Below, in pieces: positions 20,670 through 64,000 of a stretch of DNA of 64,000 nucleotides. The translations under genes and the position numbers were made by a program. Source of the DNA: Oceanispirochaeta sp. (GTDB taxonomy: Bacteria; Spirochaetota; Spirochaetia; DSM-2461); the NCBI GenBank assembly GCA_963663385.2, contig CAXXXD010000004.1, positions 960,001 to 1,024,000 on the forward strand, written 5' to 3'. The stretch's first letter is position 1; every line of letters begins with the position of its first letter. Under the pieces are notes generated by a model. It saw only the letters and a program-made list of their open reading frames with translations, made no database searches and was not told where the DNA came from.

Positions 20670-22211
<1,542 letters not shown>

Positions 22212-22408
22212 AGCGTGAAAGGTATAAGTCTTGAGGTTTGTACGCCTTGAGCAGTGAGTCACTATTTATAGTGCCTATCAGTAGTTACGTTCCTCGGTCT
22301 TTGACCTGTGGTACGTAACTTGCTTGATTCTCGTCAACTACTTCTAATTTCCCGTCAGATAATTCCTTAAAGGGCTTTAGGCGATTTGAGTTTAAGGCCA
22401 AACAATTA

Positions 22409-22482
<74 letters not shown>

Positions 22483-22616
22483 TAAAATTAAGTTTGTATC
22501 TTGAACAGGATCAAACTTTTTTTACGCCGAATTGCTTGCAGTGAGGCGGGAGATGCGGGAGGCTTTACTCTTGCGGATCTTTGAAAAGGTAATAGCGAAG
22601 GGATAAATAATAATAT

Positions 22617-25541
<2,925 letters not shown>

Positions 25542-26419: not shown

Positions 26420-27961
<1,542 letters not shown>

Positions 27962-28201
27962 AGCGTGAAAGGTATAAGTCTTGAGGTTTGTACGCCTTGA
28001 GCAGTGAGTCACTATTTATAGTGCCTATCAGTAGTTACGTTCCTCGGTCTTTGACCTGTGGTACGTAACTTGCTTGATTCTCGTTAAATACTTCCAGTTT
28101 CCCTTATTTAAATAGAAATCCGTCAATGGACGGTCGGTTTGAACAGCTTGCTGGTTAAATTGTTTTTACATAGGTAATAGCGAAGGGATAAATAATAATA
28201 T

Positions 28202-31126
<2,925 letters not shown>

Positions 31127-52671: not shown

Positions 52672-53022
52672 TTAACTGGCGGCTGGCGGATTATATTGTC
52701 TGGCTATCAGATGATTTATTTCCTCCCGGGATAGTACATCCGGCAGTCGTTTTCTTTCCCTGATTCCGTTAAGTTTATATGGGCGCTCTTTTTTAAGGAC
52801 CAGTTTTTAGAACAGTTTTATGGCAGACCATGCCAGCCGTCGCTGTTCGCTGGTTTTCTGCTCTCTGTCGAGGAACTCTGCAATTCTTGCGTCCGGTTCC
52901 GGTTCCGTTTTTCTGTTGAAGCGAAGAAACTGATCCAGATACAGGCAATACTCCCGAATGGTATTGCGGGAATAACTCCTGTTTCTCATTTCCCTTCGGA
53001 AAATATCCAGATAATTCTGCAT
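52672..53022 (-). pseudogene. Tyrosine recombinase (integron-integrase/Xer-like) pseudogene: nonsense codon and loss of the catalytic domain
   Basis: SAM-like N-domain (MRNRSYSRNTIREYCLYLDQFLRF..AWSAIKLF); TAA at 52809-52807, then same-frame read-through KLVLKKERPYKLNGIRERKRLPDVLSREEINHLI, the typical LPxVLSxEE entry to the catalytic domain; no R..HxxR..Y found downstream. Confidence 0.85.
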
Positions 53023-53068
53023 AAATCACGTCCTTTTATCTGAAGAACAATGAATAATTATCCCCTGA

Positions 53069-53097
53069 TTGCATTTCCGTTAAAATAAATCTAAAAT
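53069..53097 (+). promoter_or_regulatory. Pc-like promoter facing the cassette array
   Basis: TTGCAT-17 nt-TAAAAT between the recombinase start and the first cassette. Confidence 0.6.
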
Positions 53098-53106
53098 AAA
53101 TCACGC

Positions 53107-53134
53107 AATGCGCATAATTGTAGTTATTTGTCAT
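53107..53134 (+). other. attI-like primary recombination site with dif-like architecture
   Basis: AATGCGCATAA-TTGTAG-TTATTTGTCAT; G/TT at 53123 begins cassette 1 and partly matches its 3' core (ACATAAC). Confidence 0.65.
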
Positions 53135-53148
53135 TCTTTGGAGACTTA

Positions 53149-53796
53149 ATGAAAGAAATAAATATACCAAAACTGTATAAACAATACTTTGTGGATAAAA
53201 ATGAGGAAAGAAAAGTTTTATTCGAGAAATTGAAGGATACGTACAAACCACAGAAAGGTATTTACCCAGGAAGTTTCGTGCATATCTCTCCTTCTTTTTA
53301 TATTCAAGAAATGCTTTATATCGATTCTGATAAGAGAATTACAAAATTTTTTGAAGATGAAAAAGTCTTAAAATATATAAACCTTAATAAAACTTATGAA
53401 GAAAAACCTAAAATTAAATCATTGCAAGCGGACTTTTCAATTAATTTACCAATTGATGAGAATTATTTCGATATTATGTTTTCCTTTTTTGCAGGTTTTA
53501 TATCACAATCCTGCAAAAAATATTTGAAAAATAATGGTATACTGGTGTGTAATAACAGTCATGGTGATGCGAGCATCGCTTATACTGACAAAGAATATGA
53601 ATTAGTTGCTGTAATAAAAAGAAATGGAAACAATTTCAGCATAAATGATAAAGATTTGGATGAGTATTTCATAAAAAAAGATGGAACCTCCATTGATACA
53701 GATAAAGTTCTAAGTAAGATGATAGGAGAAAATTTTACAAAAAAAGGGTATGCTTATGTGTTTAAATTTAACCGATACCCAAAAAACAACACATAA
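53149..53796 (+). CDS. Cassette 1: class I SAM-dependent methyltransferase-like protein
   Basis: GIYPGS, YIDSD, FDIMFS, KYLKNNGIL; GGAG RBS; stop TAA lies inside the core ACATAAC. Confidence 0.7.
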   Translation: MKEINIPKLYKQYFVDKNEERKVLFEKLKDTYKPQKGIYPGSFVHISPSFYIQEMLYIDSDKRITKFFEDEKVLKYINLNKTYEEKPKIKSLQADFSINLPIDENYFDIMFSFFAGFISQSCKKYLKNNGILVCNNSHGDASIAYTDKEYELVAVIKRNGNNFSINDKDLDEYFIKKDGTSIDTDKVLSKMIGENFTKKGYAYVFKFNRYPKNNT

Positions 53797-53870
53797 CAGC
53801 TAATATGCGGTTCCGCTTTGCTTCACTCAAATCGCCTGCGGCGACTTCGCATATTCGCGGAACGTTATAG
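53791..53870 (+). repeat. attC-like site 1 (intact)
   Basis: ACATAAC-a-gctAATATGCG...CGCATATTcgc-ggaac-GTTATAG. Confidence 0.88.
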
Positions 53871-53966
53871 GCAATAAGCGCCGGCAGAAATTGTTTCTTT
53901 TGTTGGAAGAACTCGCTATCCATGGCTCGTAATAACTTTAAAGTTATAAAGGAGTGTGATAATATA

Positions 53967-54620
53967 ATGAATATGACATTATCTATTATAGGATTCTTCG
54001 GTGGCCTTTTATGTGCTATAGCCGATATGTTATTGGATATCAAAGGTAAAGATAATCTAAAATGTGGTACTAAAAAAATCATGGACAGCAACTGGGTCAA
54101 AATGCCTTCGTGGCGTTTTATCACATCCATTATAATTGTAATGTTTGCAGTTCCGATGTATAGTATGGGAGTTCTCTCGTTAGCAAATCAAATTGCGCTA
54201 AATAATAAATCCCTCGGTGATTTACTTAAACTTTCAATTTTTATTGGAGCAATGGGAGGTTTTTTTATTCATACCCTTATTTGTATTGTTCCTATTATCT
54301 ACAAGGAAATTATGAAAGAAAATAATTTTGAGCTTGCAGATCGAGTAATTACCAATGTGTATAAAGCTGTTAAAATCCCATTTGTTGTACTGTATATTAT
54401 TTTAATATTGATACCTGCAATTATTGTAATTTTTTCAATTAATACAGGATTATTATATGTCCCTAAATGGTTCGTTCTTCTGAACCCGGTAACATTTCAA
54501 ATAATAGGATGGGTTCTTCGAGCAATAAAAAAGGATTGGTTTTATGAAGTTCCTTCTATTTTTATGGCTAGTCTTGGTTTAGCTATGTATGGAATTATTG
54601 GAATAGTTAATTTGATTTAG
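53967..54620 (+). CDS. Cassette 2: multi-TM membrane protein (DUF6796-like)
   Basis: GGLLCAIADMLLD..G, about 6 TMs; AAGGAG RBS at 53949. Confidence 0.7.
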   Translation: MNMTLSIIGFFGGLLCAIADMLLDIKGKDNLKCGTKKIMDSNWVKMPSWRFITSIIIVMFAVPMYSMGVLSLANQIALNNKSLGDLLKLSIFIGAMGGFFIHTLICIVPIIYKEIMKENNFELADRVITNVYKAVKIPFVVLYIILILIPAIIVIFSINTGLLYVPKWFVLLNPVTFQIIGWVLRAIKKDWFYEVPSIFMASLGLAMYGIIGIVNLI

Positions 54621-54685
54621 GCTTATTAACTGAATAATATACTGTGGCCGTTTGCCATCCATGGCTAACTGCTTTTAAATAATCT

Positions 54686-54777
54686 GGCACTTACTGCAAA
54701 TATATGTGGCGCCTTCGGCATAAGCTTCGCAACATTTTTGCTACGCAAAAAAGTCATATATTTGCAAAACACTAGAC
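54686..54777 (+). repeat. attC-like site 2 (left core deleted, right core GTT changed to ACT)
   Basis: Perfect 12-bp stem TGCAAATATATG/CATATATTTGCA, then aaac-ACTAGAC. Confidence 0.7.
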
Positions 54778-54969
54778 GCCATTTTTTTACTAGGGAATAC
54801 AAAATGAAAAATACCAAAATACTATTAATCATATTTACAGGCATTTCATTATACTTAGTAGCTTTTAAATTCCTTCTAATGTTTCAGGATCGTTCTGCTA
54901 CTGCAAAGTAAGCGGTAATTCTCTCCATCTTGCGTGATTTCGAAATGATTATATACTCCATGAAAAATC

Positions 54970-55266
54970 ATGGAGGAACCTAATATGACCAACTGGAATT
55001 GGCCTGAATTAATCGAAGAACAAAAACAGAGCGGGAAAACAATTTCTGAGTTCTGCGCAGATAAAGGAGTTCACTATACATCTTTCTACAAGAATCGAAA
55101 AAAATTAAAGAAAAGCAGTTTTATTGAAATCAAACAGAAAGCCCCGGTATTACAGCCACAAAACCCCACAATGATACTCAGATACAAGGATTTCTCATTG
55201 GATCTGGCATCAGGTTATAACAGGCAATCCCTGATAGATCTTCTGAAGATTCTGAGAGAGTTGTAA
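54970..55266 (+). CDS. tnpA: IS66 accessory protein TnpA
   Basis: W..LIEEQKQSGKTISEFC..GVHYTSFY HTH. Confidence 0.88.
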   Translation: MEEPNMTNWNWPELIEEQKQSGKTISEFCADKGVHYTSFYKNRKKLKKSSFIEIKQKAPVLQPQNPTMILRYKDFSLDLASGYNRQSLIDLLKILREL

Positions 55267-55610
55267 TGTTTGTTGACCTGAACGAATACCGGATCTTTCT
55301 GAGACCCGGCACGACAGACTTAAGAAAAGCGATCAACGGATTATCTCTGTTTATCCAGAATGAAATGAATCATGATTTATTCGCCAAATCGCTATTCCTC
55401 TTTTGTAACCGGCAGAGAAAACTTCTGAAAATTGTCTACTGGGATAATACCGGTTTTTGTCTCTGGCAGAAGAGACTGGAAGAGAACAGATATCCCTGGC
55501 CGGAAACAGATGAAGATGCTAAAGAGATCAGCATGGATGAATTGAAAATGCTCCTGACGGGAATAGACTTTTTCAAAGCGCATAAAAAATTATCATATTC
55601 CCGTATTTAG
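55266..55610 (+). CDS. tnpB: IS66 accessory protein TnpB
   Basis: TDLRKAINGL, LFLFCNRQR..LKIVYWD..GFCLWQKRLE. Confidence 0.95.
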   Translation: MFVDLNEYRIFLRPGTTDLRKAINGLSLFIQNEMNHDLFAKSLFLFCNRQRKLLKIVYWDNTGFCLWQKRLEENRYPWPETDEDAKEISMDELKMLLTGIDFFKAHKKLSYSRI

Positions 55611-55649
55611 AGATTTTATAATTATAGAAACTTTGATAGAATTCCCCGT

Positions 55650-57212
55650 ATGGAGAATGAAGAACAGCATTTAAGAGAACAACTTGATGCACAAAAAATA
55701 GAAATTGCTGAACTGAAAAGACTTAATGCCATTCTCCAGGAGCAAGTAGCAAAACTGAACCTCCTGCACTTTGGAACAAAATCAGAGAAGATAACTGCCG
55801 AAGATAAGAAACAAGCTTCTCTCTTCAATGAAGCGGAAGATAGTGCTTTTGCTCAGAATGATGAAGAGCAGGAGAAAAATGTTATTGAAACGGTTGAGGT
55901 CGGTTCCTACAAGAAAAATATTAAAAAATCCGGCCGGAAACCTCTGCCGGCAGATCTGCCGAGAGAGATCGTGGAATATGATATTCCGGATAAAGATAAG
56001 ATCTGTGCCTGCGGAACAGAAAAGACCTGTATCGGTGAAGATGTTTCCGAGAGAGCAAAAATTATTCCGTCAAAAGTCGTTGTTATTCAGGAACGTAGAA
56101 AAAAGTACTCCTGCAAGAATTGTGAAGGGACGACTCTTGATGAAGCTGCTGTACAGACCGCAGAAGGAGCAAAGCATCTGGTCGCGGGCAGTATTGCCGA
56201 TGAAAGCCTGCTCGCTTGGAGTATAAGCGAAAAGTTTGAGTTCGCTCTTCCTTTCTACAGGCAATCAAAACGGTTAAACCAGATAGGCATACCGATCCCC
56301 CGGGCGACATTGAGCAATCTTACGATAAAATCGGCAACGGCATGTAAGCCTCTATATGATTTGCTGAAAGAAAACATTAAATCCGGTTCCATTATTAATG
56401 CCGATGAGACGAGAGTTCAGGTTCTAAAGGAACCGAAACGAAAAGCTTCAGATAAATCATGGATGTGGGTCTTTCTCAGAGGAGATCCCGATAAAAAATG
56501 TGTCATATTTCAGTATGAGCAAGGCCGATCCCATGCAATTCCGTTGGATTTCTTGGAAAATTACTCTGGCTGGGTTCAAACTGATGATTTTGAGGCCTAC
56601 CATACTGCCCGAAAAAAAGTTGATGGAGATATAAAGCATGTCTTATGCTGGGCCCATGCCAGAAGAAAGTTCTTCCAATATTGGGAATCAACCAAGAAAA
56701 AAGATGCAGAAGCAAAGCAAATTCTCGACCTGATAAAGGATCTGTTTGAACTGGAATCATTACGGGATAATTATTCGCTAAAAGGGTTTCATAAACAGCG
56801 ACAAAATAGAGCAGAACCGATACTAGATAAGTTACAGAAAAAACTGACGAAGCTTTATCCTCAAGTACCTCCTTCTTTAGAGTTCGGTAAGGCGATGAAG
56901 TATACATTGAGCAACTGGGAGCAGTTGGTTCTATATCTGAAAAATCCTGTTTTGACTCCTTCGAACAATAGCGCTGAAAATGCAATCAGACCCTTCGTAA
57001 TCGGGAGAAAAAACTGGCTTTTTGCCGGAAGCCCGAAAGGTGCTGAATCATCGGCAATTCTGTACAGTCTCGTTGAATCTGCGAAGATGAACAATCTTCC
57101 AGTTTATGCTTACTTGTACTTTATCTTCCGGGAATTGCCCTGCTGTGAAAAACAGAGTGATTATGAAAAATTACTTCCCTATAATTTAACTGCTGAAGAT
57201 ATTGCAATCTGA
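55650..57212 (+). CDS. tnpC: IS66 DDE transposase TnpC
   Basis: FGTKSEK, zinc finger, NADET, QTDD, CWAHARRKF, SNNSAENAIRP. Confidence 0.97.
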   Translation: MENEEQHLREQLDAQKIEIAELKRLNAILQEQVAKLNLLHFGTKSEKITAEDKKQASLFNEAEDSAFAQNDEEQEKNVIETVEVGSYKKNIKKSGRKPLPADLPREIVEYDIPDKDKICACGTEKTCIGEDVSERAKIIPSKVVVIQERRKKYSCKNCEGTTLDEAAVQTAEGAKHLVAGSIADESLLAWSISEKFEFALPFYRQSKRLNQIGIPIPRATLSNLTIKSATACKPLYDLLKENIKSGSIINADETRVQVLKEPKRKASDKSWMWVFLRGDPDKKCVIFQYEQGRSHAIPLDFLENYSGWVQTDDFEAYHTARKKVDGDIKHVLCWAHARRKFFQYWESTKKKDAEAKQILDLIKDLFELESLRDNYSLKGFHKQRQNRAEPILDKLQKKLTKLYPQVPPSLEFGKAMKYTLSNWEQLVLYLKNPVLTPSNNSAENAIRPFVIGRKNWLFAGSPKGAESSAILYSLVESAKMNNLPVYAYLYFIFRELPCCEKQSDYEKLLPYNLTAEDIAI

Positions 57213-57516
57213 TCCATCAGTCCTAAAATGCTGTCAATGTGGGAAGAATTACCGCTTACACTGCAAATCCCCCAGCAGTTTCTGTTTCAGCCAACTTAGT
57301 TGCATCGGCCCTGATTTTCATTTTTTTCTTCCTGGCTTCTATTCTTTTTTCCTTTAGTATTTTTACTTGTATTCAAATTTTAAAATTTAATATATTTCTT
57401 TTTATTGGCTATTCAATTTTGCTTTTCTTATCTGACTTCACTCTTGTCGGTATTTCATTTATAGCATTAGTAATTATATTAATTAGAGGCCTTTTACACT
57501 CAAAGCGTAAAAAACA

Positions 57517-57605
57517 GCGTATAAAAAAATATACGTTACGCTTTGCTTCACCCAAATTGGCCGATGGCTCTGTGGTTTGCTTCGTATATTCTCGAAACGT
57601 TAGGT
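57517..57605 (+). repeat. attC-like site 3 (left core degenerate)
   Basis: GCGTATAAA (GCGTCTAAC expected from the cassette start ACTAGACGC), AATATACG...CGTATATTctc-gaaac-GTTAGGT. Confidence 0.8.
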
Positions 57606-57662
57606 GTAATGCTTGACAGAAAAAAAAATCAAAAATAATCTTAAATGAACGGAGGATAAATA

Positions 57663-58289
57663 ATGAAAATTAAGGTTCTAATAGTTATTTTTACAGTTAT
57701 TCTTTTGGCTGGGTGTGCAAGTGGTCCAAAATCACAGGCATACGTATATAAAGATCAATATTGGGATGAGCTTATTTCGCGAAATAAGGTAGTTCAATTA
57801 CTTGATACTCGGTTTGAAGTGGCTTCTCAAGTTGGAAATACACAAAAAGGAGCTCCTTTAGAAAACATTGAAAAAGATGAAATAACTCCTATTGTTGTTG
57901 AAATTCTTAAGAAACATGATTTTGAAGTAAATGTTGTTGGTGGAATCCAATTAGTAGACTCAAATTATACTAACTTTCCACAGGAAAGAATACCCGAAGA
58001 GTCAAGAGATAAATTCTTTGTCCAGGCGTCTTCAATTTACCTTGATAGAAGTTCAACAAATTCAAATTACCAATCTATTTTTAAACTTTACTATGTAACT
58101 CCCGAAGGCGATATTATAAAATTAGGTTTTGGATTGTCAGAACAAAGAGTAGAACATTATGATTCCCTTAATGCTGATGATTTAATTCAAATAAAACAGA
58201 ATGTAAGTACTTCAGATGGTTTCGAAACAATAGTTCTTTCTGTTGTTAAATCTTCTATAGAAACGTTTTTAACCAAAAAAGAGCTCTAA
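57663..58289 (+). CDS. Cassette 4: hypothetical lipoprotein
   Basis: Lipobox LLAGC; GGAGG RBS; TTGACA-17-TAATCT at 57613-57641. Confidence 0.8.
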   Translation: MKIKVLIVIFTVILLAGCASGPKSQAYVYKDQYWDELISRNKVVQLLDTRFEVASQVGNTQKGAPLENIEKDEITPIVVEILKKHDFEVNVVGGIQLVDSNYTNFPQERIPEESRDKFFVQASSIYLDRSSTNSNYQSIFKLYYVTPEGDIIKLGFGLSEQRVEHYDSLNADDLIQIKQNVSTSDGFETIVLSVVKSSIETFLTKKEL

Positions 58290-58304
58290 ACCCCAAAGCA
58301 TTAC

Positions 58305-58420
58305 ACCTACCAGCAAATATACGCTGCGGCTTCGCCTTGGCCTTCGGCAAATAAACCCTTTGAATATATTCAAGCCCTCAAGGGGCCGGGGTTACTTCGT
58401 ATATTCTCGGAATGTTTAGG
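58305..58420 (+). repeat. attC-like site 4
   Basis: ACCTACC-a-gcaAATATACG...CGTATATTctc-ggaat-GTTTAGG. Confidence 0.85.
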
Positions 58421-58487
58421 CAATAAGCACTTTAATTTTTAATAAAATAGAGAAAATGCCACCCCGGCGGCTCGTATTGGAGGTAAA

Positions 58488-58892
58488 ATGAAACATTTAG
58501 GTTCGTGTCTTTGCGGAAATATCAAATATGAAATAAGAGGGAATTTTGAGAACTTTTTTTTCTGTCACTGTAAATCTTGTCGTAAAGATACTGGGTCAGT
58601 TCATGCTTCAAATCTTTTTTCAACAACTGCAACATTAAAATGGTTGAAAGGAGAGGAAAAAGTAAAAATGTATAACCACAAAAATTCAGGCCACATAAAA
58701 AGCTTCTGTCCTAACTGTGGCTCTGCATTACCTAATATTCAAATGGATAGTAAACTACTTGTTGTTCCTGCAGGAAGTCTTGATACAGATATAGAAATGG
58801 TTCCTACTGGTCACATCTATTTAAAAGAGAAAGCGAATTGGGATCACAATCTTGAGATGATTCCACACTATGAGGATTTGCCAAAAGAATAA
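58488..58892 (+). CDS. Cassette 5: GFA/CENP-V family Zn protein
   Basis: GSCLCG, CHCKSCRK, FCPNCGS. Confidence 0.93.
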   Translation: MKHLGSCLCGNIKYEIRGNFENFFFCHCKSCRKDTGSVHASNLFSTTATLKWLKGEEKVKMYNHKNSGHIKSFCPNCGSALPNIQMDSKLLVVPAGSLDTDIEMVPTGHIYLKEKANWDHNLEMIPHYEDLPKE

Positions 58893-58975
58893 AATGTGTA
58901 GAAATCTGAATTTACCGGAAATCAGGCATCGTTCGCCGCCATCTGCACACATTTCAATATATCAGAGCTTAATGC

Positions 58976-59061
58976 CTATAACAGCGTTTTATATGCGGTG
59001 CCTGCGACGTGGGCTTCGTAACAGCCTATAGCAAACGTCATATAAACGCGGAACGTTATAG
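58976..59061 (+). repeat. attC-like site 5 (intact)
   Basis: CTATAAC-a-GCGTTTTATATG...CATATAAACGC-ggaac-GTTATAG. Confidence 0.9.
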
Positions 59062-59134
59062 GCAATAAGCGGTTAGATTTTCTATAAGCAATAAGAATCC
59101 GCCATATATGGCGGATAAAAAAAATAAAAAAGTA

Positions 59135-59165
59135 TTGCAGTTGTCCCAACGTCAAGTTCTATACT
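59135..59165 (+). promoter_or_regulatory. MerR-type promoter with 19-bp spacer
   Basis: TTGCAG-19 nt-TATACT with an imperfect dyad TTGTC..GTCAA in the spacer, directly upstream of a MerR gene. Confidence 0.6.
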
Positions 59166-59210
59166 CCAAAGTGATGATCATCAATAACTGTAAAAGAATG
59201 GATATTAACT

Positions 59211-60131
59211 ATGAATGATTCTGTATCAATAAACGAGATTTCTTCTCTGTTAGGAGTAACAAGCAGAACTATAAGGTTTTGGGAATCGGAAGGTCTTTTT
59301 GAATGTAAGAGACATCCATATTCAGGTCATAGGCTTGTTGAAAACACTATGGTAAATAAAGTTAAACTTTGTTCAGAACTGCGAAATATTGGAATTTCAA
59401 TAAAAGATATTAAACGGATTTTCGAATCGCAATCACTAGCTTCTGTAACAAAAGTTATTGAAGAAAACCTTGCATCAATAGATGCCGATTCTCAAATCTT
59501 TGAGAATCGAAAAGCAATGTTAATAATGCTTTTTAATATTCTCAAAACAGAAGAAAAGATCGCTGCAGGTTCTTTCATTGATTTTCATTCTTTTCTAATC
59601 AATTTACTTCAAGAAAATAACTTGAAGAAATCACAGGAGAAGAAAATGATAAATAGTGACCTGAAAAAAGTGTATGAAATAGTAGAGCTTCCAAAAATGA
59701 GAGTGGTTTATAATATTTCAGTTAGTAAAAGTCCTGAAGATGAAGCAATAGAACCGATACTGGAATGGATAAAAGAGAAAGGGCTTCTTGGTGTATCAAG
59801 ATTGTTTGGTGGAAATGTGAAACCATTTCCCAAGGATTCAAATAGTGAATATGGCTATGGGATGTGTGCGTCAATACCGGCAGATATTGATGTTCCAGAT
59901 CATTTGAAAGAGATGGAAATCCCGGGTGGTTTATATGCACTACTCCCTAGCGATGATGATATTGCTGATTCATGGAAAAAGTTTATGAAAAGTTTTAAGA
60001 AGGATAAGAAGTATTGCTCCGATAGATCTAGATTGTGTTTTGAAGAGCATATTTATTATGGAAGGCCTGGCGATAGTGGGTACTCCTTTAAAATAAATTT
60101 ATTAGAACCAATAAAAGATGTTAATCAGTAG
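59211..60131 (+). CDS. Cassette 6: MerR-family regulator with GyrI-like effector domain
   Basis: SINEISSLLGVTSRTIRFWESEGL HTH; IVELPKMRV..GYGMCASIP..EIPGGLYA..CFEEH. Confidence 0.9.
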   Translation: MNDSVSINEISSLLGVTSRTIRFWESEGLFECKRHPYSGHRLVENTMVNKVKLCSELRNIGISIKDIKRIFESQSLASVTKVIEENLASIDADSQIFENRKAMLIMLFNILKTEEKIAAGSFIDFHSFLINLLQENNLKKSQEKKMINSDLKKVYEIVELPKMRVVYNISVSKSPEDEAIEPILEWIKEKGLLGVSRLFGGNVKPFPKDSNSEYGYGMCASIPADIDVPDHLKEMEIPGGLYALLPSDDDIADSWKKFMKSFKKDKKYCSDRSRLCFEEHIYYGRPGDSGYSFKINLLEPIKDVNQ

Positions 60132-60203
60132 ATAATATCTTTAGCAGAGAGGCCGTTCGCCATCCTTGGCTCACTACTTGTTATTCAACGCAGCGCTTAC
60201 TAC

Positions 60204-60293
60204 CTATAACAGAGTTTACAAGGTTGGGCCTACGGCCTCTCCCAAATTGTCTTGCTGAGCAAGACAACTTTCTGTAAAATCAAAACGTTAAGT
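60204..60293 (+). repeat. attC-like site 6 (intact)
   Basis: CTATAAC-a-GAgTTTACA...TGTAAAaTC-aaaac-GTTAAGT. Confidence 0.85.
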
Positions 60294-60378
60294 GAAATCT
60301 CGTTTTTTGACTGGAGACAGGATTTTTGATAAAATGATATCAATGAGGTTTGCATGATAATTTTCAAAGGGAAATAAC

Positions 60379-61227
60379 ATGAAAAAAGCAGTAAAATATT
60401 TCACTATTTGTATGGTATTAGTATTTACCATTTCAAGTTGCTCCAGAAAAGATGAAAAACTGTCTGTATTTCAATTAACCGGGGAATTAAGAATTACTGA
60501 GATTGAAAGCAATATATTTTTAGTTACGCACAGCTTTCCCTGGCCGGGTAATTCTTTGATGATTGTTATGGATAAAAAGAATATTCTCTGGATCGATACA
60601 CCATATACACCGGAGGCCACTGCTTTAGTATTGAACTGGATTGAAGAAAAGTATGGAAAAGGGTATTCAATTACAGAAATCAATACAGGGTTTCATATTG
60701 ACAATTTGGGTGGCAATCAAGAATTAGTAAAAAGAAATATACCAATATATGGCTCTAATTTGACGTGCGAGCTTCTTGGAACAAGAAGCAAAAACACGAT
60801 GCTGAATATGATGAATTGGCTAAAAGGGGAAAAATACGAAGATTACAGAAACGTGTATTCTGATTTTACATTTTACAGCCCTACTATTACTTTTAACATT
60901 CATGATGAACAAACAATTGTTTTTGGATCAAATGAAGTGATTATATATTATCCTGGACCAACACATACGTATGACAATCTGGTTGTCTATATACCAAGTC
61001 AAAAAATTCTTTTTGGAGGATGTATGATACTGTCCACCGATGCCGATAAAGTTGGTTATATTGAAGATGGGAACTTGGAAGAATGGGCAAATTCACTCAC
61101 AAAATTAGAAAATCGTTTTGATAATATAAGAGTCATTGTTCCTGGTCATGGAAATCCAGGAGACTCTACGCTAATAGCTCATACAAAAGACATCGTTAAT
61201 GCTTCTGGAGAAACGACAGAAGAATGA
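60379..61227 (+). CDS. Cassette 7: subclass B1 metallo-beta-lactamase, SPS-1/SPM-1-like, predicted lipoprotein
   Basis: IDTP, TGFHIDNLGG (G116-x-H118-x-D120), PTHTYDN (H196), FGGC (C221), PGHG (H263); lipobox ISSC. Confidence 0.85.
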   Translation: MKKAVKYFTICMVLVFTISSCSRKDEKLSVFQLTGELRITEIESNIFLVTHSFPWPGNSLMIVMDKKNILWIDTPYTPEATALVLNWIEEKYGKGYSITEINTGFHIDNLGGNQELVKRNIPIYGSNLTCELLGTRSKNTMLNMMNWLKGEKYEDYRNVYSDFTFYSPTITFNIHDEQTIVFGSNEVIIYYPGPTHTYDNLVVYIPSQKILFGGCMILSTDADKVGYIEDGNLEEWANSLTKLENRFDNIRVIVPGHGNPGDSTLIAHTKDIVNASGETTEE

Positions 61228-61238
61228 AAAATTATTTC

Positions 61239-61275
61239 GCCTAACAGCGAATATGCGGTTACGCCTCCGGTTCCA
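61239..61275 (+). repeat. attC-like site 7, left half only
   Basis: GCCTAAC-a-GCGAATATGCGGTTACGCCTCCGGTTCCAT, nearly the same as the left half at 62911, then runs directly into coding-like sequence. Confidence 0.75.
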
Positions 61276-61404
61276 TACTGTGATAGAGAAGAACTAGTTA
61301 AAATATTGAGTGATACAGAATCAATGAAATTTTATCCGGCACCGTTTAGCCATAAGAAAGTAGAGAACTGGATAAAATGGAATGAAATTTGTGAAATATT
61401 CTGA
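61276..61404 (+). pseudogene. Fragment of a RimJ/RimL-type GNAT acetyltransferase
   Basis: DREELVKILSDTESMKFYPAPFSHKKVENWIKWN; no start codon, early stop. Confidence 0.65.
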
Positions 61405-61512
61405 GAAAGAAGTTATGGGAGAAGCGGTTCGGGAAATACTCTAATGTATACACCGATGAAATGTTATATATCAGCAGAACATTCCGTCTGATTATCTTTG
61501 TAGAGATGTTAA

Positions 61513-61806
61513 ATGGAAAATATTGAAACATATAAAGCAACAGATGGTGAGAACATATTAGGATTTATCTCCTTACAGGATGAGTATCTTGCTGCCATTT
61601 TCGTGAGATCTGAATTCCAGGGGAGAGGGATTGGATCTTTATTATTAAACCATGCAATGGATCTCCGTAATAATCTGCAGTTAGAAATGTTCTGTAAAAA
61701 CCAAAAGAGTGTAGAATTTTATAAAACAAAAGGATTTTCTATAATTTCCGAATCAATAGATAATGAGACAGGAGAAAATGAGTTTGTCATGGGGTGGCAG
61801 AAATAA
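61513..61806 (+). pseudogene. GNAT acetyltransferase (YjaB-like), apparently N-terminally truncated
   Basis: ILGFISL..LAAIFVRSEFQGRGIGSLLL..NQKSVEFYKTKGF; only 97 aa. Confidence 0.7.
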
Positions 61807-61812
61807 AACCGG

Positions 61813-61877
61813 GCATAGCTCGAATATGCGATATCGATTCACCACAGTCAACTTCGAATATTTGTGGGATGTTATAT
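61813..61877 (+). repeat. Degenerate attC-like site
   Basis: GCATAGC-t-CGAATATGCG...ACTTCGAATATTTG-tgggat-GTTATAT. Confidence 0.7.
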
Positions 61878-61946
61878 CAAAATTCAAGTATAATTGTGTT
61901 AATTATACCGGAACAAACCGTGGTGCGGTAGTAGAAAGAAGAGTAA

Positions 61947-62840
61947 ATGATTAAATATACAGAAAATATTGAAGATGTTAAGAAATTTATCCAGGAGAAT
62001 TATAATCAAACCATTGATTTGAGTTCTTTAGCGAATGTTGCCTGTTTATCATCTTTCCATTTTTCTAGGATTTTTCGTTCGATTACGGGTTATACGCCTA
62101 TGCAATATCTAAAGAAAATCCGACTTGAAAAATCAATCTACTATCTGACACATAGTTCCTTAAATGTCTCCGAAGTTGCATATAAATGTGGTTTCAATTC
62201 AATATCAAGTTTCAATTCTTCCTTTAAAGCACAATATAATAGAAGACCGAATGAATTCAGAAACATACAAAAAAGCAAGATTAAGGAAGAATTCGGCAAT
62301 AATCAGAAAGAGTTTTCCATAGAGAACAAACATAATCTCAATAACTCGTTTTTAAGGAGAATTTGGGATATGAATGTGAATATCAAAGAACTGCCGGAAT
62401 ACAGAATTGCATTTTTCAGGCATGTCGGAAGTTATTTAAATACAGGAGAAAACTGGAATAAATTACTTAAATGGGTTGAAGCAAAGGATCTATTTAAAAC
62501 AAATCCATTGTTTATTGGAATATCACGAGATGATCCAGCAACAACAGAGGAAAATGCATGTAGACATGATGCCTGTGTAACTCTGCCGGGAGACTTTAAT
62601 GAAGAGGCCGATGGGAGTGAGGTCTTGTATGATAGAATAGCATCTGGAAAATACGCAATCTATGAGTTTTATGATACTATAGATAAGTTGGGATTAGTAT
62701 ACAGAAATCTTTTTATAGAATGGTTACCCCAAAGTGATTATGAAATGGATTGCAGGCCATGTTTAGAAATAAATTTAAATAATCCGGCTGATGATCCTGA
62801 AGGAAAAAGCAGATGTAACATCTGTATTCCAATAAAATAG
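61947..62840 (+). CDS. Cassette: AraC-family regulator with GyrI-like domain
   Basis: LANVACLSSFHFSRIF..VAYKCGFNSISSF; FFRHVGSY..DDP..CRHDAC..GKYA..WLPQS. Confidence 0.93.
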   Translation: MIKYTENIEDVKKFIQENYNQTIDLSSLANVACLSSFHFSRIFRSITGYTPMQYLKKIRLEKSIYYLTHSSLNVSEVAYKCGFNSISSFNSSFKAQYNRRPNEFRNIQKSKIKEEFGNNQKEFSIENKHNLNNSFLRRIWDMNVNIKELPEYRIAFFRHVGSYLNTGENWNKLLKWVEAKDLFKTNPLFIGISRDDPATTEENACRHDACVTLPGDFNEEADGSEVLYDRIASGKYAIYEFYDTIDKLGLVYRNLFIEWLPQSDYEMDCRPCLEINLNNPADDPEGKSRCNICIPIK

Positions 62841-62910
62841 TACCTATTTGGACCGTCTTAAAATACACCCTTGTATTTTGGGGGAATAAATGAAGTAAGC
62901 TATAATCTTC

Positions 62911-62992
62911 ATATAACAGGGAATCCGCGGTTACACCTTCGGCTCCATTCAAAGGATCTCCTGTAACTTAGCATATTCTCAGAACGTAAAAT
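62911..62992 (+). repeat. attC-like site (right core GTT changed to GTA)
   Basis: ATATAAC, complementary to this cassette's GTTATAT start, -a-GGGAATccGC...GCatATTCTC-agaac-GTAAAAT. Confidence 0.8.
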
Positions 62993-63016
62993 GAAATACC
63001 AGGGGGCGTAATCAAG

Positions 63017-63199
63017 TTGAAAAAGAAAATTCGGCGATATGTTTTAATACTTTTAGTTTTTATTCTATTTATCCCGGCAATCTATTTGGGGCTCTTGTTT
63101 TATATTCATGATTTTGATCATAATTTTTTAAAAATAGATCAATGTTTAGATAATGGCGGAAGATGGGATTATAACGATTGTGAATGTAAGCAGGAATAA
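63017..63199 (+). CDS. Cassette: small membrane protein with Cys motif
   Basis: One TM followed by IDQCLDNGGRWDYNDCEC; TTG start with AGGGG RBS. Confidence 0.6.
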   Translation: MKKKIRRYVLILLVFILFIPAIYLGLLFYIHDFDHNFLKIDQCLDNGGRWDYNDCECKQE

Positions 63200-63209
63200 G
63201 GCTGTAAAA

Positions 63210-63243
63210 AGATAACCGCCGCATATTTTCTGAGCCGTTAAAT
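63210..63243 (+). repeat. Collapsed attC-like site (internal deletion)
   Basis: AGATAAC joined almost directly to the right arm CGCATATTttc..GTTAAAT. Confidence 0.55.
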
Positions 63244-63270
63244 TAAATCCATTATTTTAGGGAAATAAAA

Positions 63271-63448
63271 ATGTTAAAAGAATTCATAGGAAAATCTGTT
63301 CATATATAGTGGTATCTACTCTTATTTAACCAACCCGGAGAAAGTTGTCATGATTGATGTTGATGAGAGCTGGTTAAAGCTCGAAAGTCGAAGCAAAATA
63401 ATACTGCCGGATGTAAATAAAATCAGCAAGGTTAAAACGAATAAATGA
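63271..63448 (+). pseudogene. Cassette: small beta-rich protein gene, disrupted
   Basis: MLKEFIGKSVHI* then VVMIDVDESWLKLE..KISKV in another frame; RBS AGGGA; followed by the right-arm remnant TATATTgttgaaat-GTTATAGGCAAT at 63472. Confidence 0.5.
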
Positions 63449-63506
63449 TGTATTTTATATATTGTTGAAATGTTATAGGCAATGATTCAGCTGGAGAAAA
63501 ACGTAC

Positions 63507-63986
63507 ATGAAATATATGTGTCCATTGATAGTTGTAAGTGATGTAAAACGCTCACGGGAATTCTATGAAAAGATTCTGAAACAGACTGTCAAATATGATT
63601 TCGGGGAAAATGTGACATTTGCTGGTGATTTCGCCATACATGAAAAAGCCCATTTTGAATCACTGATAAATAATGCTGAAATTAAAGAGAAATCGAATAA
63701 TTTTGAACTTTATTTTGAGCATGATGATTTGGAAGAGATGGTGGTTAGAATAAAGGAATCAGGGCTGGAGTTTGTACATGAAATAGTAGAACAGCCCTGG
63801 AAGCAGCAGGTTCTAAGGTTTTATGACTATGATAAAAATATGATAGAAGTCGGAGAAAGACTGGAGCATACAGCGTATAGATTATCAAAGCAGAATTATT
63901 CGATTGAAGACATATGCAGAATAACGTATCTGGAAAAAGAAATTGTTGAAAACGCGATAGATGAGTATTCGCATCTGGAGGGATAA
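63507..63986 (+). CDS. Cassette: VOC/glyoxalase-bleomycin-resistance family protein
   Basis: LIVVSDVKRSREFYEKIL, ELYFE, EQPWKQQVLRFYDYDKNMIEV. Confidence 0.9.
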   Translation: MKYMCPLIVVSDVKRSREFYEKILKQTVKYDFGENVTFAGDFAIHEKAHFESLINNAEIKEKSNNFELYFEHDDLEEMVVRIKESGLEFVHEIVEQPWKQQVLRFYDYDKNMIEVGERLEHTAYRLSKQNYSIEDICRITYLEKEIVENAIDEYSHLEG

Positions 63987-64000
63987 CTATTTTAAAAATA

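Follow-up and report, generated by a model that had tools for sequence, protein, structure and literature searches.

The 64,000-bp stretch of an Oceanispirochaeta sp. genome analysed here (contig CAXXXD010000004.1, positions 960,001 to 1,024,000; hereafter the window) carries near its right end the remnant of a tyrosine recombinase, a dif-like core that resembles the attI site of integrons, and an array of single-gene cassettes separated by hairpin sites. We find that this is an integron-type cassette system that lacks two defining traits of integrons, namely the specific insertion (I2) and clade membership of the integron integrase IntI, and the symmetric spacer with extrahelical bases of the integron recombination sites. 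We put at roughly 0.7 the probability that what remains in the window is a defunct integron-like cassette platform, distinct from the canonical integrons. The elements at the head of the array, and the unit boundaries as read from the sequence, are the following.

53022 to about 52696, minus strand: tyrosine-recombinase remnant, with its ATG at 53022, recognisable to about 52696, one in-frame stop at 52807-52809
53107..53134, plus strand: attI-like core of dif-like 11-6-11 arrangement, AATGCGCATAA / TTGTAG / TTATTTGTCAT
53123, 53864, 54771 (ACT), 57599, 58414 and 59055, plus strand: unit boundaries
60287, 61463, 61871, 62986 (GTA), 63237 and 63472, plus strand: unit boundaries, continued

GC content falls from about 0.47 to 0.30–0.39 between 53.0 kb of the window and about 64.1 kb, just beyond the window end, and the open reading frames (ORFs) of the array are, by Pfam search, mutually unrelated single genes, every one on the plus strand. 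Each of the 12 boundary positions is the first letter of a GTT triplet (mutated in two cases) at the right-hand end of a hairpin site or of the attI-like core. A first-pass annotation, made from the sequence alone, had proposed these G/TT boundaries, and each of them is real; they bound 12 AT-rich one-strand units instead of the approximately 13 counted there. Of the intI-attI-cassette layout that it described, the recombinase remnant, the attI-type core and the single-strand units stand, whereas the Pc-like promoter was not confirmed: a simple scan, which does not reach other promoter types, found no sigma-70-type promoter on the plus strand between 52600 and 53400. The decay is evident, as the recombinase is dead, an IS66-family element sits inside cassette 3, and sites c2, c7, c8, c10 and c11 are degraded. 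About 55 kb past the window end lies a second island of low GC content (0.35–0.39; G000 C4:1079001-1084000), with 0 matches to either of the site models described below.

Read on the cassette-sense strand, a site runs from yATAAC and AG through one stem arm (for example CGAATATGCG), a variable top and the second arm to CGGAAC and GTTAyrGGC. Over its approximately 100 nt this gives yATAAC, one unpaired base, a covarying stem of 11 bp, the top, the returning arm, five unpaired bases (GGAAC or GAAAC) and GTTAyr. Two covariance models were built, the first (R1) trained on six sites of the window with c2 left out, and the second, broader one (R2) derived from 84 aligned sites of the window and of regions fetched from relatives. 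Seven window sites score with the covariance model, the six training sites and the untrained c2 (26.5 bits), and in the whole 5.3-Mb genome the matches of the site model are confined to those seven places in the array. Outside the array, nhmmer profiles of the site halves gave no match, and a crude right-end motif showed no clustering elsewhere. A naive scan for AAC...GTT combined with folding energy gave 55 and 61 hits over the entire window and was rejected as useless. The cassettes and sites are listed below.

53124..53874, plus strand: cassette 1; ORF 53128-53796, 222 amino acids (aa), no Pfam family
53788-53874, plus strand: site c1, G of R' at 53864; 85.7 bits (R1), 80.8 bits (R2)
53865..54781, plus strand: cassette 2; ORF 53922-54620, DUF6796 (Pfam PF20599, E 7e-51)
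54686-54781, plus strand: site c2, degenerate, both end triplets ACT; R1 26.5 bits, E 4e-4; R2 35.6 bits
54782..57609, plus strand: cassette 3, split by IS66; membrane-protein ORF at its 3' side, 57239-57616
54970-55266, 55266-55610 and 55650-57212, plus strand: tnpA, tnpB and tnpC of the IS66-family element in cassette 3 (Pfam PF05717, PF03050 and others)
57506-57609, plus strand: site c3; 62.7 bits
57600..58424, plus strand: cassette 4; ORF 57663-58289, 208 aa, lipoprotein-like start
58302-58424, plus strand: site c4, R'' ACC; from the covariance model and sequence reading
58415..59065, plus strand: cassette 5; GFA-family ORF 58488-58892 (Pfam PF04828)
58973-59065, plus strand: site c5; from the covariance model
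59056..60297, plus strand: cassette 6; ORF 59211-60131, MerR plus Cass2/GyrI-like regulator (Pfam PF13411, PF14526)
60200-60297, plus strand: site c6; 78.8 bits
60288..61491, plus strand: cassette 7; ORF 60379-61227, metallo-beta-lactamase fold (Pfam PF00753, E 6e-9)
61236-61491, plus strand: site c7, long and weak, G of R' at 61463; R2 23.7 bits, E 0.056; contains an acetyltransferase-like fragment
61464..61881, plus strand: cassette 8; short GNAT ORF 61513-61806 (Pfam PF13508)
61810-61881, plus strand: site c8, weak, R'' AGC; R1 10.4 bits, right half alignable to the site family
61872..62996, plus strand: cassette 9; ORF 61947-62840, AraC plus GyrI-like/Cass2 regulator (Pfam PF06445, PF12833)
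62908-62996, plus strand: site c9, R' GTA; 82.5 bits
62987..63482, plus strand: cassettes 10 and 11; cassette 10 with ORF 63017-63199, 60 aa; cassette 11 without an ORF of 60 aa
63237 (G) and 63472 (G), plus strand: sites c10 and c11, right halves only; R1 10.8 bits for 63425-63482
63473..64000, plus strand: cassette 12; ORF 63507-63986, glyoxalase/bleomycin-resistance-like (Pfam PF12681, E 1e-41)

A degenerate final site after cassette 12 reaches to about 64060, outside the window, where the GC content climbs again. The IS66 element (54970-57212) is multi-copy, its depth in run X3, one of the public sequencing runs, being about 9 times that of its flanks. Site c4 is of a sub-type, also seen at locus L109 of a relative, in which the top is conserved (GCTGCGGCTTCGCCTTGGCCTTCGGC...); its depth in run X3 reaches approximately 959 against approximately 40 in the flanks, from which we conclude that the sample holds many copies of c4 with differing next cassettes.

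Across the 84 aligned sites the proposed pairs are formed in 83.4% of cells, compared with at most 39% when the partners are slid, and double-sided changes number 206 against 91 after shuffling, a value that none of 500 shuffles reached; both stems covary. AAC is kept in 77 of the 84 and GTT in 81. The asymmetry of the hairpins that had been noticed in the window is a trait of the whole family, as in 68 of 84 sites the unpaired bases on the right side outnumber those on the left by exactly 4. The modal central loop is 1x5 (44/84), its five bases being GGAAC or GAAAC, and the inner stem of 11 bp has a single column that could hold a bulge, which is occupied in 6 of the 84. In 74 of 84 sites the fold of the bottom strand is more stable than that of the top strand, with medians of -17.1 and -15.3 kcal/mol. 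True attC sites used as controls are near-symmetric, with loops of 4x3 and 3x2 at L025 and of 6x7 at L044, where the longest run starts beyond a bulged base; one Treponema denticola site, the one parsed from supplementary Table S2 of PMC3607928, reads 4x4, with extra bases in one inner arm. Thus, the sites share with those of chromosomal integrons the imperfect palindrome between AAC and GTT, the paired R and L boxes that make an outer R stem and an inner L stem, and the crossover at G|TT, but they have neither the symmetric central spacer (approximately 4x4 to 5x6 in integrons) nor a conserved extrahelical base in the inner stem.

The attI-like core lies between the remnant and cassette 1, with the unit boundary G|TT at 53123|53124. 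It bears out the dif-like primary site of the first-pass annotation in its 11-6-11 layout, and its arms equal those of E. coli dif, for which we used the sequence given in the Methods of PMC3025954, at 16 of 22 bases. The core is not the chromosomal dif, because the cumulative GC skew climbs straight across the window with no turn there (the turn lies on contig C3), and we do not find at this locus the single 28-bp site at the replication terminus of Xer/dif resolution; GC-skew analysis did not identify the host's own chromosomal dif. In the divergent locus of a distant relative CAATGCGGATAAGTGTAGTTATGCG occupies the equivalent place, similar cores lie upstream of the recombinase gene at L102, L109, L107 and L180, and of the 18 regions examined 7 show the strict core pattern if the window and two weaker cases are counted. 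The spacing from GCATA to GTT is 10 bases in the right half of each site, compared with 6 bases in its left half and in the core, and for this reason we suggest that the folded bottom strand imitates the core, with the addition of a 4-base bulge beside AA|C. Folded in silico, the bottom strand has an R arm with ATAA|C at its end and an L arm of GCATAT type, separated by a central region with the 4-base bulge on the strand that would be cleaved; it so presents two Xer-type arms around an imperfect centre, as described for elements of the IMEX type.

The hairpins could also be terminator-like or repetitive extragenic palindromic (REP)-like repeats that lie between horizontally acquired genes and take no part in cassette-wise recombination. 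They do follow ORFs, and they are stable, with the median energies of -15 to -17 kcal/mol mentioned above, but such repeats would not be expected to conserve AAC and GTT ends and a fixed asymmetric loop, nor to be linked to a recombinase. The ends of the cassettes are furthermore matched to each other. The far end of a cassette pairs better with the start of the same cassette than with the start of the next one in 50 of 62 cassettes (medians 9 and 5), as the long end complementarity seen in the window had suggested; at least 12 pairs are formed in 19 of 62 own-end comparisons and in one in-array comparison, whereas controls with ends that do not belong together have a median of 5 and none of 51 reaches 12. 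For cassette 4, the own ends pair over 15 bases compared with 2 for the next cassette. As in chromosomal integrons, a cassette thus holds both halves of its outer stem. The GFA cassette 5 has a counterpart with 88% aa identity in the L103 array, in a genome of another family; at the nucleotide level their homology sets in at the GTT of the site before the cassette and weakens inside the site after it.

Strains that are nearly identical to the window differ from it by entire cassettes. This comparison used Logan contigs of other public runs that are at least 99% identical to the window in their overlaps, some of them at low depth. In run X6 site c1 is followed directly by cassette 12, so that 9,620 bases are skipped with 12 other letters between, and cassettes 2-11 are missing. 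In run X7 a contig of 4,572 bases joins 61854 to 63220 and drops cassettes 9 and 10, with at least 255 bases on each side of the joint and 2 shared letters, and cassettes 2-3 are replaced by 1,280 other letters at depth 2. The contigs of runs X3 and X8 diverge from the window sequence immediately after the GTT of c4. Two more joints in X7 (53868->61242 and 58096->59176) were discarded for too low a depth. Gene order, had it been fixed among relatives, would have spoken against the cassette interpretation, and it is not fixed, as strains lack cassettes 2-11 or 9-10. Units are thus gained and lost at G|TT, with one joint that falls within sites instead. These differences may reflect earlier activity of the platform or an enzyme acting in trans. 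Species of the genus, being about 70% identical with rearranged flanks, have little bearing on unit-wise turnover; only G008 is collinear in both flanks, and there a GC-rich filler of 5.3 kb without an array takes the place between them. With matched ends, a cassette shared by the arrays of two families with its breakpoint at GTT, and whole-cassette differences between strains, we consider the explanation by terminator-like or REP-like repeats to be very improbable, and favor cassette-wise recombination.

To follow the platform beyond the window, 60 genomes of the same class were scanned with R1, as the first-pass annotation had called for, and clustered one-strand arrays were found in 23 of them, in many families. 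The genome of the window is itself spirochaetal, with three FlaA (PF04620) matches above the cut-off, whereas 14 control genomes have none. A profile of four members of the recombinase family (A4), searched over the same genomes, separates 23 family matches of at least approximately 190 bits from a second group, which consists of the XerC/D pair present in all genomes, at 120-172 bits, and of one match of 183 bits with a XerC/D-type gene as its neighbour. Sites occur at distances of 0.1 to 5 kb from ten of the recombinase genes, which are spread over eight genomes and five families; five of these loci are divergent as in the window and in five the array follows downstream on the same strand, and both of these layouts also occur among chromosomal integrons. 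In a metagenome sample of 80 loci, picked solely by recombinase homology (32-47% identity), R2 finds sites in 19 loci, or 17 of the 41 that have at least 2.5 kb on one side. The 46 site hits in these loci repeat the two layouts: 30 are upstream of the recombinase gene and on the strand opposite to it, 15 are downstream and share its strand, and a single one is located elsewhere.

All 23 fetched recombinases of the array-linked family match our own IntI profile (made from 71 IntI proteins, 411 positions) in two pieces, approximately 93-273 and 332-410, and all of them miss positions approximately 274-331. In an alignment with six IntI proteins about 41 columns are missing, exactly at the IntI signature segment, while the catalytic R, H-x-x-R, H and Y are kept. 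Positions 285-320 of the profile are spanned by none of the 80 metagenome homologues and by 70 of 71 true IntI. The family accordingly does not pass the IntI model TIGR02249, which it matches with 156-185 bits in two stretches (cut-off 265), and it passes none of the curated models for XerA, XerC or XerD either: NF040815 (XerA-type) is the best with 193-215 bits against a cut-off of 220, and the XerC and XerD models give 130-190 bits against cut-offs of about 330. The nearest solved chains by sequence are the Pyrococcus XerA-like 4a8e (192 bits) and IntI4 2a3v (165 bits, again in two stretches), and with a predicted structure (mean predicted local distance difference test score 77.6) the best Foldseek match is XerA 5hxy (E 6e-13), with 2a3v at E 1e-12. 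The family is thus like archaeal XerA (5hxy, 4a8e; NF040815) in sequence, fold, size and domain plan and in having no insertion, but unlike it is bacterial, stays below the NF040815 cut-off and is tied to cassette arrays rather than to a chromosomal dif.

Two quick maximum-likelihood trees were made (LG+G4), with the columns of the insertion either retained or removed, and with the SH-like approximate likelihood ratio test (SH-aLRT) as the only measure of support. The 25 IntI group in a single clade (SH-aLRT 100), and in neither tree does this clade include any of the 14 array-linked or 16 metagenome recombinases. The examination of intact homologues that the first-pass annotation had asked for, by insertion and by tree, therefore places them outside the IntI clade and without I2. 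When the tree is rooted on XerC/D of the genome, the insertion-less lineages are paraphyletic around IntI; the sister clade of IntI contains array-linked members, metagenome members with sites, and homologues attributed to candidate phyla, Marispirochaeta and other spirochaetes. Recombinases of about 270 aa that are about 40% identical to the family (P0018-P0120), annotated as from Patescibacteria-type candidate phyla and Margulisbacteria, interleave in the tree with metagenome members that have sites nearby. Three members (L103, L114, L118) have an extra N-terminal domain of about 80-100 aa, for a total of 354-382 aa; the genome's canonical Treponema-type IntI likewise has an N-terminal extension.

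The remnant in the window was identified as a tyrosine recombinase by the first-pass annotation, which Pfam PF13495, an N-terminal SAM-like core-binding domain (31.8 bits, cut-off 27), TIGR02249 (positions 2-112 of 315, 38.3 bits) and our IntI profile (positions 94-209 of 411) all confirm. It stops short of the region of the IntI insertion, and we see no trace of a catalytic domain between it and the adjoining tetrapyrrole-methylase gene. Among its 67 tblastn matches the top ones are the insertion-less L123 and L120 (59% over 103 aa, E 3e-33), each full-length apart from one in-frame stop; L109 (38%) and metagenome members follow, and the best locus from the IntI flanks ranks 24th (34%, 42 bits). 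As the best matches are L123 and L120 and the IntI flanks come so far down, the remnant, judged by its sequence, belongs to the insertion-less, array-linked family. A word-based protein search with the 71-aa ORF of the remnant, covering longer proteins only, found 0.

The array has much in common with sedentary chromosomal integrons, including those of Treponema (PMC3607928): a recombinase beside a primary site, one-strand promoterless single-gene cassettes, and a cargo of GNAT, glyoxalase-like and Cass2-type regulator genes. Hence the system could be an ordinary chromosomal integron that has lost intI, with lineage-specific attC sites served by a canonical IntI elsewhere, such as the intact one that this genome encodes on contig C2 (locus L001, C2:1687729-1688955, 408 aa, 381 bits against the cut-off of 265), the short recombinases being bystanders. 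The AAC and GTT ends, the R/L stem plan and the Cass2-type cargo would all agree with this, IntI tolerates diverse attC sequences, and IntI above the cut-off is present in 29 of the 60 relatives. However, R2 gives 0 hits beside canonical IntI in 80 loci (793 kb). R1 gave 0 hits in 57 IntI-flank loci of other phyla, as expected for so specific a model. IntI is moreover never close to the arrays in the 11 relatives that have both, being on another contig in nine and at least 1.7 Mb away in two (G013, G019), and 12 of the 23 array-bearing relatives, including G020 and G024 with a single contig each, have no IntI above the cut-off. The remnant that heads the array is of the insertion-less family, and it is not close to the C2 IntI, with which it has no tblastn match at E 0.01. 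Finally, the sites lack the conserved bulged bases on which I2 docks. We therefore consider a canonical integron without its intI unlikely, and favor a platform with its own recombinase, one that differs from chromosomal integrons by its I2-less recombinase below the TIGR02249 cut-off and outside the IntI clade, by its 1x5 loop and by its dif-like primary site. Cassette-site arrays without a nearby IntI, for which loss of intI or service in trans have been proposed as origins, are similar to this one, but here a recombinase remnant is present, and it is of a non-IntI family.

Upstream of the C2 IntI (C2:1676000-1689000) there are two copies of a 426-aa ORF, which from its N-terminal sequence we take to resemble the reverse transcriptase of a group II intron, together with a block of very high AT content (GC content 0.25-0.28). 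A crude and strict scan found no symmetric attC-like hairpins near this IntI, a result that is not evidence of their absence. Three identical copies of one element, at C2:1864-1867 kb, C3:1641-1643 kb and C4:302-304 kb (L004-L008), each carry two neighbouring tyrosine-recombinase genes, with frames of 422 and 363 aa.

Alternatively, the folded sites could be dif mimics used by the host XerC/D, as for the phage CTX-phi and IMEX elements, with the neighbouring recombinase a dispensable Xer paralogue. The 16 of 22 arm bases that the attI-like core shares with E. coli dif, the XerC/D pair in every genome searched, and the persistence and variation of the array here despite a dead local recombinase would all be accounted for. 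On the other hand, a dedicated recombinase consistently adjoins the arrays, in no more than two fixed arrangements, its gene has the attI-like core as a neighbour, and the family is distant from the genome's own XerC/D in both trees. We regard service by XerC/D as quite improbable and again favor the dedicated recombinase. In so far as CTX-phi and IMEX are described in PMC7790495, the likeness is real in other respects, as they too use a single-stranded dif-mimic hairpin with an imperfect centre and a Xer-type recombinase without I2, and a block of the second exchange is plausible here as well. They differ in that here the recombinase is dedicated and encoded beside the site, that the cassettes are in tandem without a phage genome, and that the target is a private attI-like core rather than the chromosomal dif at the terminus. 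Acinetobacter pdif modules (in part after the abstract of PMC10132070) were dropped as a parallel; they are short, double-stranded and of alternating orientation, compared with the same-strand hairpins here.

Several observations weigh against our interpretation. The family assignment of the remnant rests on an N-terminal domain with 59% identity to homologues that each have an in-frame stop, and profiles of the two families score the remnant equally, with 26 bits each. The intact IntI on C2 might work in trans. Sites are missing from 13 of the 23 fetched recombinase loci; most of these are located at the end of a contig, although L122 is flanked by 8 kb on either side. A family member of at least approximately 190 bits is likewise missing from 13 of the 23 array-bearing relatives, as it is from the present genome. 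The pairing and covariation figures were obtained on an alignment (A5, 84 sites) fitted to the model itself, and related genomes do not count as independent samples. The breakpoints of the 61854/63220 joint lie inside the right halves of two sites and not at G/TT, for which reason recombination between sites by another route is possible.

Weighing these points, we find the proposal of a distinct Xer-like cassette-capture platform, made in the first-pass annotation, largely supported by the insertion-less recombinases, their position outside the IntI clade and the gain and loss of units. A working platform of this kind, as in related spirochaetes and in metagenomes, would be made up of a dedicated recombinase of 265-380 aa without I2, near to IntI and archaeal XerA, a dif-like duplex core, and one-strand promoterless cassettes. 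We suggest that the recombinase would bind two substrates, the dif-like core in double-stranded form and the bottom strand of a cassette site, which when folded would mimic this core. A single-strand exchange at G|TT could then take place between the folded bottom strand and attI or another site, and replication would resolve the junction, as in integrons. The 4-base bulge may stand in for the extrahelical bases and I2, in that it would mark the strand and block a second strand exchange. The roles given here to the bulge, to the bottom strand and to replication are drawn by analogy with I2 and with CTX-phi as treated in PMC7790495, where the imperfect central region of the CTX-phi hairpin blocks the second exchange by XerC/D. 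In the present genome, where only the first approximately 108 residues of the recombinase are left, the 12 cassettes would now be a stranded store.

Elsewhere in the window, at approximately 21500-25400 and 27300-31000, there are near-identical multi-kb copies, in which the same hits of the hairpin scan recur with shifts of 5,750 and 5,585 bases, suggestive of a tandem duplication plus an indel.

In the literature searched, a limited collection, we found no publication on an insertion-less integron-like platform. According to the abstract of PMC3607928, Treponema is the sole spirochaete clade with integrons, by which the canonical kind is meant, and PMC7790495 presents the I2 helix as the innovation that lets integron integrases safely recombine folded single strands. 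If our reading is true, the platform would be a second, or an ancestral, solution to folded-single-strand recombination without I2. As the XerC/D-rooted tree nests IntI among insertion-less recombinases, we tentatively raise the possibility, though we would not consider it the likelier outcome, that the insertion-less array-linked recombinases are the stock from which IntI arose and that hairpin cassette capture is older than the I2 helix. The tree root consists of the two long-branched XerC/D of the host genome, and the order of events is our inference from it. In such an ancestral system the bulged dif-mimic site would have provided both strand choice and the block of the second exchange, and I2 and the extrahelical bases would have come later. 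The copy in the window is inert, and its value is that of a well-resolved member that shows strain-level variation. If the reading holds, the origin of integrons would be testable using living examples, and surveys keyed to IntI would record too few cassette platforms, whose arrays they may class as orphan clusters. If, moreover, the insertion-less stock is the origin of IntI, such platforms would be widespread and unseen by searches based on IntI.

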